DNA from: a virus
Taxonomy: Duplodnaviria > Caudoviricetes
Direction: 5' to 3' (one strand)
Virus record (IMG/VR): IMGVR_UViG_3300044641_005618
DNA: 64,000 nt
Part shown: piece by piece, positions 230-19,793 of the stretch
Numbering within the stretch: position 1 is the first letter of the stretch
Layout: the number at the start of each line of letters is the position of its first letter
Position numbers and translations under genes: made by a program
Notes under the pieces: generated by a model
Databases searched by the model: none
What the model was told of the DNA's origin: nothing
The model's input: the letters and a program-made list of their open reading frames with translations, nothing else

Positions 230-1651
230 TTAAACAGCAGGTGGAAGCAGTTCCATGAAACTAACCAAAATAGCATCCATTATATCTGAGTACGATCCAA
301 TGCACTCCCAACTTTTAAACAACACGTTGTGTATATCTGAGTTGGATGCTACTTTCCCCGACTTTACCATTAGATTGATCGCAAGTGCCTTAGCCACCAC
401 TCTCTCCTTGCTCACTCGAACAGGTAAACCTAGCTTCTCTAGGTACTGTCTCCAGTGCTTACTCGCCCAGGACGACTCGATAACAACTTCTGTCACGCCG
501 TATGCTTTGGCAGCCAGAGAAACAATTACGCCAACAGTCTCCAAGTCCCAATTCGCCTGGTACGCGTCGAGAACGTACACACAGTCCTTTTCCTTCGTGG
601 ATCCAGCCACACAAATCCCAGTCATATCCGCGTTGCCTGGCGAGCAAGAGGGGTCAATAGATATAATAACCTTGTCCAGGTGTGGGATCTCAGAGCAGAC
701 TCCGAACCCAGTGTTGGACACCCCTTTGTACAACCACGAGAACTTTACATCTCCGATTGTTTTCCGTAAGTCCTGTAGATTCTTCGGGCTAAATGTGGGG
801 TTTCGGAAGGAAAGAGCGTCATTGATACCCTGCCCAACTTTCCTACCTAGAATATCAACCTTGGCTTCTTCTTCGCTCTCAATGATGGCGGATAAGTTAA
901 TGTGAACGGCTCCGTTCGGGTTTGAGACTGGGTCAAAGACACCGTACTTTTCCAGAAAGTAGCTGAAAATATCCCCCTCACCTCTTCGAGACCCGAGAAC
1001 AACTGTGGCCCTATTCGCTACTCCCAGGGTTCCAATTTGCTCCACCCATTCACTATTAACACCATTACCCATATACTTATGGTAGTCATCGATCAACCAA
1101 ACTCCGGCCCCTCTGAATCCCCCGTAGGCGAGACCGCACACAGAACTCCCAGGAGCAGACGGCGAAACATGGTGCGGTTCCAACTGAACTTTCGAAAAAA
1201 TCCCTCCAGAGGAAGGAGTACTAATCAGTTCCTTCACCCTACTTGCTGCAAATCTGGATGCACTTTGGTCGTAAGAAGTTACGACATGACTAACAGTAGA
1301 GTCTTTCCTTAAGAGCCAGGACAATAAGTGAACCCCCAGAGTGGTTTTTCCTGATCGTGGTGGCATTGACACGAGGAGAATTGGGTACCTTCCTTCGGCG
1401 ATGTCCTCAAAGGCGGACCCTATCACTTCGTACGCTTTTGTATCGAGCGGTGCGTTTTCGAGTGCGAAACCTCCTGCACCGGACACAAGATCGCAGAAAG
1501 CAAGAAAGCTACTTTTCGCACTTTCCTTAGCGAACGCTTCTTGAGGTAACCCCTCAAGTTTCAGCTCAAGGAGTTTTCGTCGGTAGCTCCTCCAGCTTGA
1601 GTGCTCTGCTAGCTGAGAAGCGTGCGTTATTTTTTGGTGTTTAAGTGACAT
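230..1651 (-). CDS. divergent terminase large-subunit paralog
   Basis: Walker A MPPRSGKT, Walker B WLIDD, nuclease-like ISIDPS / VIES / DIMDA; N-terminus ITHASQL.E.S.WR.Y is collinear with the adjacent TerL. Confidence 0.8.
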   Translation of the reverse strand: MSLKHQKITHASQLAEHSSWRSYRRKLLELKLEGLPQEAFAKESAKSSFLAFCDLVSGAGGFALENAPLDTKAYEVIGSAFEDIAEGRYPILLVSMPPRSGKTTLGVHLLSWLLRKDSTVSHVVTSYDQSASRFAASRVKELISTPSSGGIFSKVQLEPHHVSPSAPGSSVCGLAYGGFRGAGVWLIDDYHKYMGNGVNSEWVEQIGTLGVANRATVVLGSRRGEGDIFSYFLEKYGVFDPVSNPNGAVHINLSAIIESEEEAKVDILGRKVGQGINDALSFRNPTFSPKNLQDLRKTIGDVKFSWLYKGVSNTGFGVCSEIPHLDKVIISIDPSCSPGNADMTGICVAGSTKEKDCVYVLDAYQANWDLETVGVIVSLAAKAYGVTEVVIESSWASKHWRQYLEKLGLPVRVSKERVVAKALAINLMVKSGKVASNSDIHNVLFKSWECIGSYSDIMDAILVSFMELLPPAV

Positions 1652-1684
1652 CTTGTGGTTGTGTTTGTGTTGTCTTGGATTGAG

Positions 1685-3448
1685 CTAATTAAAAAGGTCG
1701 TAGCCGGATCCGCTCCGAAGACCTCGGCTGCGGCCACCCCGGAAAATGCCCCTATCAAGTGTCTCGGCAGACTGGGGGTCAGGGTCGTTTAAGCCCGTAC
1801 TGCGGGGGACTCTTCGGCCCCCGACCGATACAATTCGCTCTTCGAAAAGCCCACCGTAGGATTGACCGTCTCTGAACATCGGTCTGCGTAGGTCACCAGC
1901 CCATTTTCGACTCTGAATGATCGAGTCTTGTATACCCCGATCCACAGAGTCAATTTTGAGCGAGTAGTAAGTCAGCGCCCATACCATGGCGTCAGTACTA
2001 TCGTCGTGGCGAACATACGGGAAAGAAGTTAGTTCCTTTACGAACGCGTCAGTCCATAGTCCTCGAACCAGTATAACGCGATGGTTTTCGAGTAAAGGGC
2101 AGACTGCCTGAAGACGTGTCGTCTTTGACTTCAGCGGCCTCATTTCCTCGATAGGTATCTTAGCCTCTCGCTTCAGCATTTGAATGAGAGAGTGCCCCGA
2201 TGCGGCTTTCTCAATGCATAATACCTTTGCGTTGTATAAGGCGTAATGTTGCTTTACCGAGTCAATCAAGTCAGGAAAGCCCCACTTACCCTTAACAATC
2301 TCACGAATGTAAACAGTATCTGGATTACGAGTGTTTATGCCCGCGACGCAGATTGCACTTTCATCTGCTTTCTCTCGCTCGGAGAAAGCGCAGTCAACTC
2401 CAAACCATACAACGTCCAGGGGAGGGCAGTCTTCCTCCTCAATTACCTTGACCCAGCTATTCTTTACAATCTGTCCCTCAGCCGATACAGGAACCCCTTG
2501 GTAAAGTGCTGCGAACTTAAAGCTACCCATTATCTTTTTCTGGGACTCAAGCATCGGAACAGAGAAAGCGGGGTTGTCGGGCCAGTGGCTTTCTCCCATC
2601 TCTCTTCCCAGCGGATCATTATCAGGGTCTTCACAGAGCCCTGCTATGTTTATCCACCTCCATCCAAAAGGATTATCTTCCGGGTCGTATAAACCATCTC
2701 CATCCATCAAGACCCCGTGAAGGTCTTTTTCATGAAAACGGGTTGCTATAATAACTTGAGCGTAGTGGTTTGTTCTTCGTGTGGACATTTGCTCTGCCCA
2801 CCAACTTTCTAAATTGTCCAGCGCTGCTTTAGAGTCAGAAGATTTCAATGGGTCGTCAATTAGTGCTGCACCAATACCCGTGGATTCCATGTCTATGGTT
2901 CCAGACGTGAACCCAGTGAGAATACCTCCAACGGATGTCGCAAGTACATAACCACCACCCACTAAATCATATTTCGAGTCACGGTTAAATCCTGAAAACT
3001 CAGGAAAGACCTTCCTAAACGAGGGAGTCTTCATCATTACGACAGCTTCTCTGTGAAACTTTTGAGATAAAGAAGCCCCGTAGGAAGCCAAGATGTGTTG
3101 GGTTCTTTCGTCTTTTCCGAGCAACCACGCCAGGAACATTGTGGAAAGCATAGACTTTCCTGAACGCGGGGGGCACGAAATAATAAGCCGATTGTATCGA
3201 CGTTCGTAAAGATCCTCAAAGGCACTTGCAATGATCTCGTGAAAGGGGGAAACGTTTAAGTCCCCATTTTTCATGATGTCACAAAAGGCCAGGAAACAAT
3301 CTCGGGCAGCCTTAAACCTGAACTCCTGAATTACAGATCGAGGTGCTTCAAGAAGTTCAAGCTCTCGAATACCCTTCGTATATTTTCTCCACCGGGATTT
3401 TTCCTCTAGCTGAGAAGCGTGTGTTATAGACGGGGGGCGAAAGTTCAT
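1685..3448 (-). CDS. terL: terminase large subunit
   Basis: CPPRSGKS Walker A, LIDDP Walker B, ATRFH coupling motif, RNase H-like GVDCA...DESA...IEKAASG...HDDSTDA. Confidence 0.93.
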   Translation of the reverse strand: MNFRPPSITHASQLEEKSRWRKYTKGIRELELLEAPRSVIQEFRFKAARDCFLAFCDIMKNGDLNVSPFHEIIASAFEDLYERRYNRLIISCPPRSGKSMLSTMFLAWLLGKDERTQHILASYGASLSQKFHREAVVMMKTPSFRKVFPEFSGFNRDSKYDLVGGGYVLATSVGGILTGFTSGTIDMESTGIGAALIDDPLKSSDSKAALDNLESWWAEQMSTRRTNHYAQVIIATRFHEKDLHGVLMDGDGLYDPEDNPFGWRWINIAGLCEDPDNDPLGREMGESHWPDNPAFSVPMLESQKKIMGSFKFAALYQGVPVSAEGQIVKNSWVKVIEEEDCPPLDVVWFGVDCAFSEREKADESAICVAGINTRNPDTVYIREIVKGKWGFPDLIDSVKQHYALYNAKVLCIEKAASGHSLIQMLKREAKIPIEEMRPLKSKTTRLQAVCPLLENHRVILVRGLWTDAFVKELTSFPYVRHDDSTDAMVWALTYYSLKIDSVDRGIQDSIIQSRKWAGDLRRPMFRDGQSYGGLFEERIVSVGGRRVPRSTGLNDPDPQSAETLDRGIFRGGRSRGLRSGSGYDLFN

Positions 3449-3477
3449 ATTACACTGTTATACGTTTTACGGGTCTC

Positions 3478-3777
3478 TCACTCAATACTTTTTAGCAACT
3501 TCGTAAGTGTCCCGTTATATTCTTTCGCCAGGATCTGCTCCTGTTTGCTCTCCGAATCGGTCAGACTCACAATATCCGACACAATCTCGCGGTGTGCTTT
3601 CACAGCCGAGTTGAACACGGTCACAAGATCCCGAGTACTACACTCCTCCAAGTGGTCTTGAAGCAGCTCAAGAGCGTCTTCAGCAACCTGCAATGCTGCT
3701 GCGGCAAGGGTCTCTTTCTGCCTCAGAATTTTGTCGTTCGAATTTGTTATCATAGTGTTTTTCTGCATCGTGAGCAC
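3478..3777 (-). CDS. small helical protein, possible terminase small subunit
   Basis: 99-aa helical ORF directly upstream of terL; the assignment is from position only. Confidence 0.4.
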   Translation of the reverse strand: MLTMQKNTMITNSNDKILRQKETLAAAALQVAEDALELLQDHLEECSTRDLVTVFNSAVKAHREIVSDIVSLTDSESKQEQILAKEYNGTLTKLLKSIE

Positions 3778-3902
3778 CCTGTATTTGAAGTTGGGTAACT
3801 CTTGAAGTTTTGCAATTGTTTAAGGATCGCCTGTGCCAAGGCTGTATTGTTGGACTTAACGGCAACGTCATACTGTGCCCAGAGCTGTGCGGGAGTTGCC
3901 AT
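3750..3902 (-). CDS. hypothetical protein (50 aa)
   Basis: ATG at 3902 (MATPAQLWAQ...) tiles between neighbours; the ORF-track start overlaps the upstream gene. Confidence 0.5.
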   Translation of the reverse strand: MATPAQLWAQYDVAVKSNNTALAQAILKQLQNFKSYPTSNTGCSRCRKTL

Positions 3903-3904
3903 AC

Positions 3905-5128
3905 TTAACAGAGACTCGGAGGATTTGGTCCGCCTTCGCAAGGAATACAGCCGAGCTTCCACAAGGAATTAATCGACGCAAGCTCGAAGGAATCTTGTAT
4001 CAACCAACCTTTACCCTGCGGAGACTGGGCTACAAAGTAGAACCGTCCCTGCGGTGTTTGAATAAACGTGTCTGGCTTCACACCGACGAGTGCTCCGCCC
4101 ATCAAAGTTTGCAACTTGCCATTCGGGTCCAGAGGATCCGAGTACAAGGTTTGATTCGCCCCCCTTACAACTGCGAACTCCCCGAAAGTGAGTCCCGAAG
4201 ACCAAGACGCATCTTTCACACTTAGAGGGTCTATCCCCCCCTTAGTCGCACCGGAAACCGTGTTCCTCCAAAGATCCACAGCGTAACGAGCAAGCTTTTT
4301 CCCGGAGTTAACGTAGAAAACTTCCTTTATGGGCTGCTTTGTTGTGGCGTTCCAAATTGTTACAACCAAGCGACCGTCCGCCGTGAAATTCTTATTACTT
4401 AGCAAGTAGATCGGCTGATTTAAAGGATCTTCGAGGAATACTTCACTCGGGCTGCGAACATAGACCCAATCTCCTGACTGCGTAAGTTCTTCGCTCCACT
4501 GCACTCCGAGTGCGTCTGTGAACGCAGCCTCCAGGGGATTCGTTTCAGGGTACCACGGCACATACACACTCCCCGTTGCTTCATCGAGGACACCAGCCAA
4601 AGGCAAAGAAGTTAGGACATTTAGAGTGGGAAAAATTTGGCGGCAATCACCACGTTGAACACAGGGGTCGAGTGCGATATACGGCAGGGTTTCCTCGATA
4701 GTTACGGACCAGTTTTGAGTGTAGGTGTACTGGGACTCCGGGCTTAAGCCTGTGAACTGGGACGTAGAGCATCGAAAAGGTTCCAAAACTTGCACGTAAG
4801 CACCCGAAGGGGCACTCCCCGACAGTGTGATTTTTGCGCCCATGAGGAGTTGCGTGGCAAAGTCGTGTCCGGAACTCGTCAGGTAGTTTTGGCACGAAAA
4901 GTTAAGCTCGAAATTGAGAGTGTCTTCGTATATGAAAGGCACTCGGTTTTTAACATTGCTTGTTGAGCTTTCGTAGCGCACAACAATGTTGTTCGTCTGA
5001 GTTACAACGCCCTCATTCTCAACCGCGTCAGCCAAACGCAATACATTAACCCCAATTGGTATGAGGGGGGAGGCAATAAGAGAGTCGCAGAGGAATTGCT
5101 CTATTTTAGTTATTGTATTCAGTTCCAT
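3905..5128 (-). CDS. virion protein, N-terminal region resembling tail terminator/completion proteins (Mu gp37-like) with a C-terminal extension
   Basis: N-terminal alpha/beta region (IEQFLCDSL...IVVRYESS...LNFELNF...LLMGAKITLSG); directly downstream of the gp36-like gene. Confidence 0.5.
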   Translation of the reverse strand: MELNTITKIEQFLCDSLIASPLIPIGVNVLRLADAVENEGVVTQTNNIVVRYESSTSNVKNRVPFIYEDTLNFELNFSCQNYLTSSGHDFATQLLMGAKITLSGSAPSGAYVQVLEPFRCSTSQFTGLSPESQYTYTQNWSVTIEETLPYIALDPCVQRGDCRQIFPTLNVLTSLPLAGVLDEATGSVYVPWYPETNPLEAAFTDALGVQWSEELTQSGDWVYVRSPSEVFLEDPLNQPIYLLSNKNFTADGRLVVTIWNATTKQPIKEVFYVNSGKKLARYAVDLWRNTVSGATKGGIDPLSVKDASWSSGLTFGEFAVVRGANQTLYSDPLDPNGKLQTLMGGALVGVKPDTFIQTPQGRFYFVAQSPQGKGWLIQDSFELASINSLWKLGCIPCEGGPNPPSLC

Positions 5129-5140
5129 TTAGGTTAGGAC

Positions 5141-6220
5141 TTAAGGGTAGATCGTATCAGAGCCGTTAACGCGATAGCCGCCTGCGTCGTTCGGCTCTGT
5201 AATTTGTGGAGTCCCACCTAAGTCTTCGTAGTTTCGTGCTGAGATCCAGTTAGTTTCAGAGTTGTTTTGCCCCGTTGCCCCGAAACCAGCACGAAAGTCC
5301 GGAGCCTGGTCTCCCGCCATGTCCGTGTTCCATCCGCCGAAACCTTTACCTGAAACTCCGTTGTACCGTTGGGGGACGCGCCAAGAACGCATGATCCCAG
5401 CTTTCGTATCTATAGCTGAGTCACCGTGGCCCGCACGAACCGAAGTCATTTCTCGTTCAGCGTCGAGTTGTTTTAGTGCTTCGGTGTAATCCTTGAAAAC
5501 ATCTTCTCTTCGCCGGACATTATCTAGGTAGTATCGGGCTATAATCAGTGCCGTTCGGCGGCGGTTGCTCGTAATTAGGACCTTTCCCGCTTTCCCTGAC
5601 TGCTCAATGTATGAGTCTATGAGAGCGTTTGCATCCTCGATTGCCATTCGCATCTTGGCAACATTCACCGAGTTTGCACTCGCGTCGTCAATGTTTGTAA
5701 GTTGTACGGCTTCCTTGAGTCCGTAAGCGATAATGAAATCGTCGGGAGACGCGCTACGCGGGTCGGACCTGTTTGGCGTTAAAACACCTGAGCGATCTTG
5801 ATGCGGATAGCCGTAACCGCCAATAGTCTGCCCAAGGTTGGAACCCTTGCGAGAGCTTTCCGTTTGTTCGCTCGGTGTGAGCGTGTTTCGGACCGAAACT
5901 CGGTAAAAGCCTCGTACTGCGTTTCTTTTCTTTACAACATCACTAGCTGTGGAGGGGACTAGCCCCCTCATGCAGGACGCTAAGGCGACGGGGGGCTCAT
6001 AGGAAACAAATACCTCGTCCCACGCAGACAAGCAGCTGTCTAGCCCAAGGGATACCATTGTGTCCGAGGAGTACACAAGTGTCTCGACACCGTACTGGCC
6101 GTAGTTCACAGTGAAGGAACTTATGGGGACACTGACCCGAGTGTCAAGTGGGCTATCGAAGTACAGAACAACTGTACTCGGCGCTGAAAGTATGGCCTCC
6201 TTTATCTGCGGTACTGACAT
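5141..6220 (-). CDS. head-tail connector (DUF1320 / Mu gp36-like) with N-terminal SwmB-like domain
   Basis: AIEDANALIDSYI...IARYYLD...YTEALKQL gp36 pattern; N-terminal VVLYFDSPLD...SSFTV...VSLGL...VFVSYEPP resembles a SwmB repeat. Confidence 0.7.
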   Translation of the reverse strand: MSVPQIKEAILSAPSTVVLYFDSPLDTRVSVPISSFTVNYGQYGVETLVYSSDTMVSLGLDSCLSAWDEVFVSYEPPVALASCMRGLVPSTASDVVKKRNAVRGFYRVSVRNTLTPSEQTESSRKGSNLGQTIGGYGYPHQDRSGVLTPNRSDPRSASPDDFIIAYGLKEAVQLTNIDDASANSVNVAKMRMAIEDANALIDSYIEQSGKAGKVLITSNRRRTALIIARYYLDNVRRREDVFKDYTEALKQLDAEREMTSVRAGHGDSAIDTKAGIMRSWRVPQRYNGVSGKGFGGWNTDMAGDQAPDFRAGFGATGQNNSETNWISARNYEDLGGTPQITEPNDAGGYRVNGSDTIYP

Positions 6221-16495: not shown

Positions 16496-19400
16496 TCAGG
16501 ATAGGATGTTGGTGATCATAGCGCCAGAACCAATAAGACCAGTTGCGCCGAGGCCAACTAGGTTAACCACACGTTCAATTGTGATTTCAGCACGAACAAC
16601 GCGGCGTTCACGAATGTAGTATTCGGGACGGACGGCGGGGGTGCCTGTGAGCTGATATGTGTAAGAGAAGGCAGGAGTCGCAGCATTCGCACCACCAGCA
16701 GGCATGATGGAATCAGAAGGACCGTTAGGGCTGTAGAACAGAAGGATACCGTTAGCGGGGAATACCGGCTGTAGGGTTCCATCTTGCGCTAAGTAACGAC
16801 CTTCGGCAACACGTAGGCCACGCTCAAGACCGAAGTAGCGAGCAATGACGTCAGTGTCGACGCTGTCTGCAGATGTGTACTTGATACGATCAAGGATCTT
16901 CTCGTTGGTCAGCAAGAGGTCAAACACGGCAGTACCGACGACTGCGGAGTTTGGACGGATACCGATTTGGTTGGCGACTGCACGCTTGAGGGTTAGGATG
17001 TCTTCAATTGGGTTAGAAGTAGCACCAGACCAGGCGGCGTCTCCAGCAACGGAGCCGTAAGCTGTCTTAAAGTTTGTCCAGGTTGTGAAACCGAGTCCGG
17101 TCTGGGAACCTGCGGTTCCGTTGTAGGGCTCGTAAGGGTTGTAAGTCGCGGTGACGGAAACAGCTTGAGCAACGGTGTACTCGTAGCTGTTCATCAATCT
17201 GGACATTGCATTCCTGGTTTCGATTGCGCGAAGATCTACTTGTGCAGGCAAATTGTTATCGTAAAGGCTCTTTATCCCTTACTTCTTTCTGTTTCCAGAA
17301 AGTTCAGACTATATCTTCACCTTTGCTAAGCAAAGGGCTGGGCGCTCGTGGACGAGTTATTGTTGTCGAAACTCATCGTCTAGTCGTTGAACCTTTTTAC
17401 CACAGAAATCATAGCGATTTCTCGACGTAGTAAACTCGGCTGCTGATTGCCTGTTTCTTTAACGGAAATTCAGGGATCCCAGCAATTCACCCAGTTAATT
17501 TGTGGTTAAGCTGCCACAGCAAGAGCCAAACAACCCTCGCCAGCGTTTTCAATTCAATACTGTTACCGTAAAGGCTCTTTATCCTTTACTTCTTTCTGTT
17601 TCCAGAAAGTTCAGACTATATCTTCACCCTTGTTAGGGTGCTAGGCGCTCTTGTCAGCTTCATCACTGTTCTAGTGGTATGCTGTTAGTCGTTGAACGTT
17701 CTCTCAGTCCCCTGAGAGTTTCGCTGCTGATTGCCTTGTGTTTCAGAGAAGTCACTCCTGAAACCGTCAGGTTTCCCAGCAATTCACCCAGTTTTTCTTT
17801 CAGTTTCTCAACTGATGGAGGCTATTGATTCAACCTCTTCAGGCAATTCCCAGGCGACCACTTCCTGCTCTAGAGCATAAGGCTCAGAGTCGTAGCGGCT
17901 TTGGACGTATGGGATGTTAGTTCCGTAAGCACGACGGAAATCGTTTATAGCAAACTGCTCCTTCCCAAATCTGAGAATTCTCCCAGCGCGGGTAGGGGTG
18001 TCCACAACCGGTGCGATAAACACTTGTTACCGTGAAGGCTCTTTATCCTTCACTTCTTCGCATTTCTGCAAAGATCAGACTATATCATCATCTTCCTTAA
18101 ACTTTTTAACAACGGTTCGCAGAGACTGCCAAGTATTACCTAGACCGGTTAGCCGGAACAGCTTCCTGGCCCCACACTTTTCGTTAGAAACCCAAACTTC
18201 ATGCAATAAACCTAAATTAGACCAAACTTCGACATTAGCCCGAGGGTTTTTAATGCCTGTTCGATCCCGGTCGGGTCTATTAGCGGCTTGCAAGGCGAAT
18301 TGTATAGTTGGTTTACTAAGTGCCTTATCTTTAAGTTTCTGTCTTGATTCTGCACTCCACACTCTGTTCTTGCATAATTCTGCACGAGCGGATCTTTCTT
18401 TATCAGACATTGGAACTTTCCTGGGTCTGGCCTTTCCTTTATTGGATTTGCCAATTTTAAACCTAGTTTCGTCCGAGTGTTTATGATGAGCTAAGGTTTC
18501 GTACACTCTGGAGTTTTTCGAAGACTCCTTGAAAGAGTTTATAGCTTTGCCTAACCTCTTTATGGAAGAGAAAGCTAGAGCCAGTAGGCAGTGAGACAGG
18601 TAGTGCTCTCTGTAGGTGAGTTTGATTAGGTTACCATCTTCATTTCCACCCTTCATGCACTTGGGCACTATATGGTGAATGTGGTGTCCGGGTTCTCGTG
18701 TCAAACTCCTTGGGGGTCTGGAGAGGATAAACTTTATGTACCGTTGGTAGTGTAAGGGAGAGTCGGGCGCTCGTGGAAAGATTATTTCAGGGTTGATCAC
18801 TTTCTAGTCGTTGAACCTTTTTACTTAACACTACTATAGTTAGTAGAGACCCTAAGTAAACTTGGCTGCTGATTGCCTATTTTGCAAAAGCAAAACTAAG
18901 GTATCCCAGCAATTCACCCGATTTTCAATCAGAGTCACCTCTGAGTGGAACCCTATCGATTCGCAATGTTGGTGGACAGTATGTTTTCTCTGCTTACACA
19001 GAGTGTCGGACTATCTTATCGTTTCTTTACAAAACGTTGGGCGCTCTAGCCTGTTATTAAGGGAACTAAATCCCCCAGGTAGTCTCTGAACCTTCTTCCG
19101 GTGTACCGGAAGCTTGGCTGCGGATTGACCCTTTTGCTAAGCAAAAGTAGGCTTTCCCGCAGTTCACCCAATTTCTTTTCCCCTACACCAAAGGGAGCAT
19201 GAAGCCTTGTGCGAGTGTTGTGAGGATTGGCCAGTGTTATCGCAAAAGCTCTTTATCTTTTGCTTCTGTATGTTTCCATACAGGTCAGACTATATCATCA
19301 TCTTTGCTTGAGCAAAGAGTCGGGCGCTCGTGGATTGTTCGCCTGTTCTAGGCTACTTAATCTAGTCGTTGAACCTTGCCCCTATCCCTAGGGGCCTTGG

Positions 19401-19793
19401 CTGCTGATTGCCTATTTTGCAAAAGCAAAACTAAGGTATCCCAGCAATTCACCCGATTTTCAACTTTGTTTGGAAGTTGGGACCCTAATTAATCCACACC
19501 TGCATAAGTTTGTTGTAGCAACTTGTTATCGTAAAGGCTCTTTATCCTTTACTTCTCTACATTTCTGTAAAGTTCAGACTATATCATCATCTTTGCCTGA
19601 GCAAAGAGTCGGGCACTCGTGTCAGCCTCATCACTGTTCTAGTGGTACGCTGTTAGTCGTTGAACCTTGCCCCTATCCCTAGGGGCCTTGGCTGCTGATT
19701 GCCTATTTTGCAAAAGCAAAACTAAGGTGTCCCAGCAATTCACCCGATTTTCAATCAGAGTCACCTCTGAGTGGAACCTTTATGATTCATCAT
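16496..19793 (-). CDS. major capsid protein, 351 aa, spliced from 7 exons: 19785-19793, 19492-19518, 19192-19230, 18959-18976, 17833-18020, 17533-17554, 16496-17248
   Basis: Joined exons total 1056 nt with no internal stop: MMN-LQQTYAGVD-PILTTLAQGFMLP-STNIAN-FIAPVVDTPTRAG...ELPEEV-IENAGEG-PAQVDLRAIE...; lies between the decoration and tube genes; lambda gpE/Mu-like capsid character (NPIEDILTLKRAVANQIGIRPN). Confidence 0.88.
17249..17532 (-). mobile_element. group I intron 6 of the capsid gene (284 nt, no ORF)
   Basis: P/Q/R/S core; P1 GAGGGU/GCUCUU; ends ...GATAACAATTTG before CCT GCA. Confidence 0.9.
17555..17832 (-). mobile_element. group I intron 5 of the capsid gene (278 nt, phase 2, no ORF)
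   Basis: P/Q/R/S core; P1 GAGGU/GCCUC puts the cut inside the Val codon (GT|A); P10 UCAAU/AUUGA. Confidence 0.9.
18021..18958 (-). mobile_element. group I intron 4 of the capsid gene (938 nt, carries an HNH endonuclease ORF)
   Basis: P/Q/R near 18920-18805 and S near 18075; P1 GAAU/GUUC; P10 CGAUAGG pairs 7 of 7 nt with 3' exon UUUAUCG. Confidence 0.92.
18075..18800 (-). CDS. intron-encoded HNH homing endonuclease with NUMOD3-like repeats
   Basis: HHIHHIVPKCMKGGNEDGNLIKLTYREHYLSH motif; HSDETRFKIGKSNKG; the ORF occupies the P8 region and its last codons (DDDIV*) are the intron S element. Confidence 0.85.
   Translation of the reverse strand: MINPEIIFPRAPDSPLHYQRYIKFILSRPPRSLTREPGHHIHHIVPKCMKGGNEDGNLIKLTYREHYLSHCLLALAFSSIKRLGKAINSFKESSKNSRVYETLAHHKHSDETRFKIGKSNKGKARPRKVPMSDKERSARAELCKNRVWSAESRQKLKDKALSKPTIQFALQAANRPDRDRTGIKNPRANVEVWSNLGLLHEVWVSNEKCGARKLFRLTGLGNTWQSLRTVVKKFKEDDDIV
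18977..19191 (-). mobile_element. group I intron 3 of the capsid gene (215 nt, divergent, no ORF)
   Basis: P GAACTGCGGGAA and Q AATCCGCAG (compensatory change relative to the others), R GTTCAGAGACTA, S AAGATAGTCC; P1 UCCCU/GGGGA; P10 pairs 7 of 8 nt with UCCACCAA. Confidence 0.9.
19231..19491 (-). mobile_element. group I intron 2 of the capsid gene (261 nt, no ORF)
   Basis: same P/Q/R/S core; P1 GGAU/GUCC; ends ...GATAACACTGG before CCA ATC. Confidence 0.9.
19519..19784 (-). mobile_element. group I intron 1 of the capsid gene (266 nt, no ORF)
   Basis: P GAATTGCTGGGA, Q AATCAGCAG, R GTTCAACGACTA, S GATATAGTCT; upstream exon ends in U, intron ends in G; P1 GAAU/GUUC. The 3' splice site could alternatively lie 3 nt earlier (also a G, also in frame). 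Confidence 0.88.

Follow-up and report, generated by a model that had tools for sequence, protein, structure and literature searches.

A freshwater cyanophage capsid gene with paralogous group I introns, whose helices are apparently exchanged between insertion sites

Phage genes that carry several group I introns have been described before: the gene orf142 of the Staphylococcus phage Twort contains three, and the DNA polymerase or terminase genes of the Bastillevirinae contain two to three each (Landthaler and Shub 1999, as cited in PMC11878797). We analyzed a stretch of 64,000 nucleotides (nt) from a virus of the Caudoviricetes (IMG/VR record IMGVR_UViG_3300044641_005618), referred to throughout as the window, in which the gene for the major capsid protein is interrupted by six group I introns. 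As in Twort and the Bastillevirinae, one structural or replication gene holds several group I introns, its exons are short, and exon skipping between introns is possible. Unlike in those phages, the introns number six here and 10–11 in relatives, 13 insertion sites lie within 356 nt, and the exons are as short as 8–22 nt; the introns are also found in the capsid gene only, and their modules have demonstrably been shuffled from copy to copy.

Group I introns of T-even phages and cyanophages home by means of intron-encoded or free-standing endonucleases, with co-conversion of the flanking exons (PMC2988022, PMC3984707). The capsid gene resembles these systems in having an HNH open reading frame (ORF) in a peripheral loop, introns that are present or absent among close strains, and a synonymous exon tract beside introns 5 and 6; but whereas classical homing places an intron at the cognate position of an allele that lacks it, the capsid gene also has parts of introns copied from one site to another. 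Nuclear ribosomal DNA (rDNA) offers a second comparison, since its group I introns have spread to new sites, with reverse splicing inferred phylogenetically (Bhattacharya et al. 2005, PMC1299323). Like those introns, the ones described here are one family at many neighboring sites, with sister introns where two sites have the same short stretch complementary to the guide. Unlike them, they occupy a phage protein gene and not eukaryotic ribosomal RNA genes, they have endonuclease lineages particular to each site, and their recent identity is better explained by conversion. In crAss-like and Jug phages, many group I introns and homing endonucleases break essential genes, and metatranscriptome reads support splicing (PMC7886860, PMC12880540). 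There the introns are distributed across many genes, at about 18.5 per genome, whereas in a 277-kb sister genome of the window all matches above the cut-off are in the capsid gene.

In the searchable literature we found no phage gene described as having six to eleven paralogous introns, and no account of shuffled modules or concerted evolution among such introns. The components, namely group I ribozymes, HNH homing endonucleases and homing, are ordinary; what is new is the variant seen here, a swarm inside one gene that exchanges cassettes. Most of what is held about the arrival of group I introns at new sites, and about their evolution in multiple copies, is inference from sparsely sampled phylogenies of rDNA and organelle introns. 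The phage clade examined here provides a dense natural series, in which a gene has anything from 0 to 11 introns and strains can be set apart by a single module swap or by the location of the endonuclease, and it makes possible direct tests of reverse splicing at a 4-nt match, of endonuclease retargeting, of conversion tracts and their breakpoints, and of the order of splicing around exons of 8–39 nt. The multiplication of group I introns inside one gene, followed by their mutual homogenization, is seen here in nature with unusual clarity. The peripheral helices of these ribozymes are natural exchangeable cassettes, which is relevant to ribozyme engineering, and the locus is also a warning for annotation, as capsid genes of large freshwater phages may be split into micro-exons that gene callers miss.

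Our reading, which we hold to be very probable, is that the six introns belong to a swarm of paralogues that is homogenized by non-reciprocal recombination of modules across sites, and the sequence patterns described below lend strong support to gene conversion as the process. A search with the exon 7 protein recovered full-length relatives of 351 amino acids (aa), including P0002, which is 100% identical across exon 7. The exon map and the intron boundaries were set by aligning intronless or spliced contigs (L001–L003, which encode P0002) to the window. Here and below, WIN is the window's own allele, L-numbers are contigs or loci of relatives, and sN is an intron site at nucleotide N of the coding sequence (CDS). 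The six introns interrupt the CDS at nt 9, 36, 75, 93, 281 and 303, as follows.

16496..19793, minus strand: major capsid protein gene (Phage_cap_E), 351 aa once the six introns are removed; exons 5 and 7 match Pfam PF03864 and phrog_1005; the spliced product is P0002
Ending at 19785 (ATGATGAAT), minus strand: exon 1
19519..19784, minus strand: intron 1, site 9, 266 nt, without ORF; RF00028 at 89 bits; P1 pairs GAAU|C with GGUUC
19518-19492, minus strand: exon 2, 27 nt
19231..19491, minus strand: intron 2, site 36, 261 nt; RF00028 at 97 bits
19230-19192, minus strand: exon 3, 39 nt
18977..19191, minus strand: intron 3, site 75, 215 nt, without P9.1; RF00028 at 66 bits
18976-18959, minus strand: exon 4, 18 nt
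18021..18958, minus strand: intron 4, site 93, 938 nt, its P8 region holding an HNH ORF; RF00028 at 72 bits
18020-17833, minus strand: exon 5, 188 nt
17555..17832, minus strand: intron 5, site 281, 278 nt; RF00028 at 103 bits; 5' site after GAGGT, 3' end ...TATTG
17554-17533, minus strand: exon 6, 22 nt
17249..17532, minus strand: intron 6, site 303, 284 nt; RF00028 at 85 bits
17248-16496, minus strand: exon 7

These six elements are genuine group I introns and are predicted to be self-splicing. The Rfam model RF00028 has six matches in the window, all inside the capsid gene and scoring 66–103 bits (cut-off 50). Every 5' exon ends in T and every intron in G (6/6 each), and an in-frame stop is found 0–8 codons past the 5' splice site in each intron. 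A P1 helix with its own exon folds for each of the six, which bears out an earlier statement that every guide fits the exons of its intron; from phage to phage, the guides of sites 281 and 303 change in step with their exons. P10 pairing was found for sites 93 and 160 and was not convincing for site 9. Among 20 family members, RNAalifold recovered compensatory changes in 27 of 42 consensus pairs, with almost none broken, so the helices of the introns are real. The position at which introns of subgroup IA (the phage type) have extra P7.1/P7.2 helices, between P7 and the 3' strand of P3, holds an insert of 32–35 nt, where the consensus predicts only a 3-bp helix. Intron 3 shares no module with the other window introns and is 49–56% identical to them. 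It had been called unrelated in the preliminary description of this DNA; a separate lineage it is, but it matches the same Rfam family, and "unrelated" overstates the distance.

The primary evidence for exchange is a set of near-identical blocks between introns, whose hand counts in the preliminary description proved exact when recounted.

19687..19778, minus strand: block of introns 1 and 4 (partner 18861-18952), 91/92; P1 guide strand, P2, P3 5' strand, P4-P5
19654..19754, minus strand: block of introns 1 and 2 (partner 19363-19463), 100/101; P3-P6, up to the conserved GTTCAACGACTA
19621..19665, minus strand: block of introns 1 and 5 (partner 17653-17697), 43/45; P7 5' strand and the P7.1/7.2 module
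17561..17628, minus strand: block of introns 5 and 6 (partner 17254-17321), 66/68; P7 3' strand, P9, P9.1

Ungapped extension revealed that identity drops steeply past both ends of each block, and the block borders coincide with conserved core anchors. When at most one mismatch is allowed, the blocks measure 101 nt (s9/s36), 92 nt (s9/s93), 69 nt (s36/s93), 62 nt (s281/s303) and 38 nt (s9/s281), lengths that were reached in none of 2000 column shuffles of the pairwise alignments. Pairs that include intron 3 have a longest common block of at most 15 nt, which is the length expected from the conserved core alone.

We used five invariant core strands as anchors to divide each intron into six modules, whose types are clusters at 85% identity. 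The modules, and the strings of types that they form in the window and in the sister strain L091, are given below.

M1, P1-P2; M2, P5; M3, P6; M4, P7.1/7.2; M5, P8 with or without ORF; M6, P9 to the 3' end
WIN: s9 (intron 1) AAAAAA; s36 (intron 2) CAADAC; s75 (intron 3, types private to it) EDEFEE; s93 (intron 4) AABBFF; s281 (intron 5) KFFALM; s303 (intron 6) NKJHOM
L091: s9 AABBBA; s93 AAFCAF

The types of P1-P2 track the insertion site in all phages compared, and those of P5, P6, P7.1/7.2, P8 and P9 reappear at different sites in many combinations. Alternative types of a module form the same helices with a different length and sequence, as in P6, which measures either 25 or 46–48 nt. Trees of the two parts conflict. 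The tree of the ends (M1 and M6) requires 11 changes of site label, which is the minimum and was reached in none of 500 shuffles, and the core tree requires 21 changes, compared with 24.1 when labels are shuffled. In approximately unbiased (AU) tests on a concatenated core alignment, same-site clades were rejected for s9 (p ~ 1e-121), s281 (2e-5), s303 (1e-4) and s93 (1.5e-4), whereas on the ends they were not rejected (p 0.40–0.52). We therefore describe the introns, on sequence grounds, as site-bound at their ends and shuffled between sites in their inner helices.

Shared modules are also more alike within a lineage than between orthologous sites. Copies of P7.1/7.2 type A differ by 0.91 nt between different sites of the same lineage, compared with 3.0 nt between lineages at the same site, and the corresponding values for P5 type A are 1.08 and 5.0 nt. 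One P5 type is common to 6 of the 11 introns of L125, and the window's orthologous introns are without it. This pattern is the signature of concerted evolution, and the comparisons strongly support a process that is real but partial. The preliminary description had set against its own proposal the case that each intron has a closer relative at the same site in distant phages than among its neighbors; this holds for the ends but fails for the cores, and intron 1 as a whole matches its neighbor intron 2 at 223/274 and its L125 orthologue at 215/285. Together, the module table, the conflict between ends and core, the AU tests and the similarity within lineages uphold the earlier view of the introns as a patchwork of modules exchanged between neighbors.

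Close strains show turnover. Among those with exon 7 identity of 98% or more, the module string of intron 1 is AAAAAA, AAACAA, AABBBA or ABBBBA, and the endonuclease-bearing body is located in intron 1, in intron 4 or in both. Strains near-identical to the window differ in the location of endonuclease ORFs: L333 (1-771) has an ORF at site 9 plus another at site 93, L332 has a site-318 intron with ORF (2431-3397, 967 nt), and the site-93 intron of L091 measures 263 nt and has no ORF. The set of filled sites differs at the same level of exon 7 identity: 9, 36, 75, 93, 281 and 303 in the window; 9, 36, 75, 93 and 318 in L091, L332 and L333; and 9, 41, 281, 303 and 356 in L092.

Intron sites in relatives were located on lake virome and metagenome contigs with a purpose-written spliced aligner that requires a terminal G. 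The number of introns of this family in the capsid genes of relatives ranges from 0 to 11, and 13 sites are used in total (CDS nt 9, 36, 41, 75, 93, 150, 160, 192, 273, 281, 303, 318 and 356), all in the first third of the gene, and most of the other relatives' loci (about 200 distinct) are intron-free. The earlier claim that one ribozyme family has colonized many sites of one gene holds. The largest numbers were found in L125 (11 introns at 1651-5254 of a 127-kb contig) and L200 (10 introns on the reverse strand of the locus, 279-kb contig), where the exon between sites 273 and 281 is 8 nt long and others measure 10–15 nt. The site-93 intron of L125 (2292-2569), like that of L200 and L206, ends in A and not G, has no P9.1 and reads GTCTAA instead of GTCTGA in the 3' strand of P7; L008 joins its exons precisely at that A. 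A "site 100" called in these three contigs was a false split of this intron, whose boundary was fixed from L008, and when the full-length CDS served as reference, additional "introns" called late in the gene in L097 and L141 were spurious and reflect small indels there.

The sister record behind L092, G001 (277,244 bp), has all of its Rfam group I matches above the cut-off in the capsid gene, at 191794-194750; one weak match (30.9 bits) lies at 248642-248804, about 54 kb from that gene. By capsid protein, the nearest isolate is Synechococcus phage S-CBWM1, which is 66.7% identical and matches in a single uninterrupted piece, and megablast of the region against isolated phages returned two short core matches only. 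The phages that carry the introns are giant freshwater cyanophages. A scan of viral contigs for the P3-P4 core pattern led to L200 and L206 and found the pattern in more than 119 unrelated phage contigs; it is generic to phage group I introns and uninformative on origin.

We detected a further feature inside intron 4, whose ORF is a predicted HNH homing endonuclease.

18075..18800, minus strand: HNH/NUMOD3 homing endonuclease ORF in intron 4; phrog_655 (1.3e-22), phrog_12434 (HNH) and Pfam NUMOD3; His-Asn-His motif in the translation

ORF-bearing versions of the introns occur at sites 9, 41, 93, 273, 281, 303 and 318, among them an 867-nt version at site 303 of L092, and the position of the ORF in the ribozyme is constant. 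The endonucleases form one HNH family, with 55–86% aa identity within a site and 27–45% between sites. Beginning with the TAG in the P7 strand (GACTAG), the frame that encodes the intron 4 endonuclease stays open across P7.1/7.2 and the 3' strand of P3, and the same ORF offset of 150–168 nt is seen at all other ORF-bearing sites.

Exons near introns 5 and 6 differ from those of close relatives in a way that resembles homing. Compared with L091, the window matches at 17/22 positions in CDS 282-303 and at 53/57 in CDS 304-360, against 97–100% elsewhere, and the differences are all synonymous.

17533..17554 (exon 6) and the first ~12 nt of exon 7, minus strand: tract of ~9 synonymous differences from intron-free sister alleles (L091, L001)

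This tract, which surrounds sites 281 and 303, resembles the product of co-conversion. It is also present (window 17500-17560 and 17210-17248) in L088 and L092, both of which have introns 5 and 6. Intron 3 matches the distant phage L096 at 204/215, although the flanking exons are only 77–80% identical; because the intron is more conserved than the exons beside it, this suggests that intron 3 moved between lineages.

To account for these patterns we propose a swarm of paralogous introns that has colonized 13 or more sites within the opening 356 nt of this gene in a clade of giant freshwater cyanophages; of the window's introns, five are of one family and intron 3 is a second lineage. Each intron retains site-specific ends, that is, a P1/P10 guide fitted to its own exons and a 3' tail. 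The inner helices (the P5 extension, P6, P7.1/7.2, P8 with or without the HNH gene, and P9/P9.1) are self-contained hairpins between invariant core strands, and these strands would supply the homology for non-reciprocal recombination, either gene conversion or template switching during break repair or recombination-dependent replication. The partners may be intron copies within one genome or in co-infecting genomes, and a helix module pasted from one intron into another would leave near-identical blocks and homogenized copies within a lineage. If direct repeats recombined by one reciprocal crossover, an essential gene would lose exons; the viable products would be limited to patches with two ends, which matches the pattern observed. 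The stimulus would come from the phage's recombination-dependent replication and from cuts by homing endonucleases that provoke repair, an enzymology that we infer along with the directions of transfer and the first colonization of each site.

Several observations weigh against this explanation or narrow it. The core alignment used for the AU tests is a concatenation and is itself mosaic. The genome label is unclustered on the core tree (20 changes, compared with 20.8 when shuffled), so exchange between lineages must also be frequent and homogenization partial. Taken whole, intron 5 is closer to its orthologue than to its neighbors, contrary to a concerted pattern for whole introns, and intramolecular exchange is indistinguishable from intermolecular exchange with a co-infecting phage.

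The preliminary description had taken introns 1 and 4 for a rare snapshot of recent transposition, in which one of them was newly reverse-spliced into the other GAAU site and the 91/92 block is its remnant. Its underlying observation stands: both introns follow GAAT and carry the same guide, GGTTC. GAAT is the sole exon sequence that sites 9 and 93 share, which fits an RNA-guided choice of 4–6 nt better than a long endonuclease site, and the two sites group on the ends tree (SH-aLRT 87). But a recent transposition is expected to leave identity along the full intron and a new site that is empty in close relatives, and this pattern was not found. The distant lineages L125 and L200 have introns at both sites, and L096, L099 and L141 have one at site 93, with P2 stems that have diverged. 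The endonucleases of sites 9 and 93 belong to separate HNH lineages and are ~39% identical, whereas the site-93 orthologues in L096, L099 and L141 reach 63–81%. The block itself begins at intron nt 7, directly after six first bases that differ between the two sites and that at site 93 pair with exon positions +2 to +7 and covary between phages as a P10 guide, and it spans only nt 7-98; the rest of introns 1 and 4 is of different module types, and in sister strains these introns have other module combinations. The 91/92 identity is better read as a recent conversion tract over old paralogues than as a fresh insertion, because both sites are occupied in distant lineages, with diverged P2 stems and different endonuclease lineages. 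The shared guide is explained equally well by a filter that lets a converted guide module persist only where donor and recipient site have the same exon tetramer. Intron 1 or 4 may long ago have made a GAAU-guided move to the other's site, but a fresh move we regard as improbable.

Short-read assembly could in principle have duplicated or chimerized introns across repeats, and misassembly classically arises from direct repeats such as these, of 90–100 nt within 2.5 kb. The same introns nevertheless recur base for base in independent assemblies of other strains (L332, L333, L088 and L091): introns 1–4 match those of L332, a metagenome contig from another strain, at 264/266, 260/261, 215/215 and 938/938, introns 5 and 6 match those of L088 at 278/278 and 284/284, and intron 2 is identical in L091. 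This excludes the assembly duplication that the preliminary description had named as a danger, and since the multi-intron layout is also repeated in L125, L200, L206, L092 and L095, each intron has a guide for its own exons, and the joined exons give the conserved protein exactly, we attach practically no credence to an artefact. Structural constraint on introns of ordinary descent, with no recombination at all, is just as hard to credit: group I cores are indeed highly conserved and the block borders touch conserved strands, but the blocks span peripheral helices that exist in alternative, divergent types of different length, constraint alone yields the short blocks seen in intron-3 pairs, and the ends and core trees conflict. 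Exchange confined to orthologous sites of different phages, by homing or homologous recombination, has marginally more in its favor, in that exons are mosaic, exon tracts travel with introns, and introns exceed their flanking exons in conservation, as intron 3 does. Such exchange certainly operates beside cross-site exchange; as the only process it is very unlikely, because the same module type, often identical, is found at different sites, and some transfers must therefore have crossed sites.

Beyond module recombination across sites, we tentatively suggest that the 5' third of the gene is a nursery, in which a unit of intron and HNH gene is repeatedly retargeted nearby and its copies are kept alike by conversion; the stack of introns, each having an endonuclease lineage to itself, would then be a multi-site weapon with which a strain converts or excludes capsid alleles of co-infecting relatives. 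Either guide-directed reverse splicing or a drift in endonuclease specificity may bring about the retargeting. If this is true, intron number would be driven by competition between phages and not by neutral parasitism.

Contigs from which introns are missing bear on splicing. L001–L008 come from one series of JGI samples, which are probably lake metatranscriptomes. L001–L007 represent an L091-like strain with introns wholly or partly missing; in L001–L003 the exons are joined at exactly the predicted points and the frame is restored, and L008 matches every exon of L125 at 100% and lacks precisely its 11 introns. From these exact joins we infer that the capsid introns are spliced in vivo and that the contigs derive from RNA. 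If the 5' splice site of intron 1 were joined to the 3' splice site of intron 4 (19785-19793 / 18959-18976), 84 nt would be dropped in frame, corresponding to residues 4–31, and no contig with exon skipping from site 9 to site 93 was seen. Four contigs of one strain (L004–L007, from JGI samples 3300012708, -752, -717 and -729) retain introns 1+2+3, 1+3, 2+3 and 1+3, respectively; intron 3 is retained in all of them and the site-93 intron in none. These contigs look like partly spliced RNA from which intron 3 is removed slowest.

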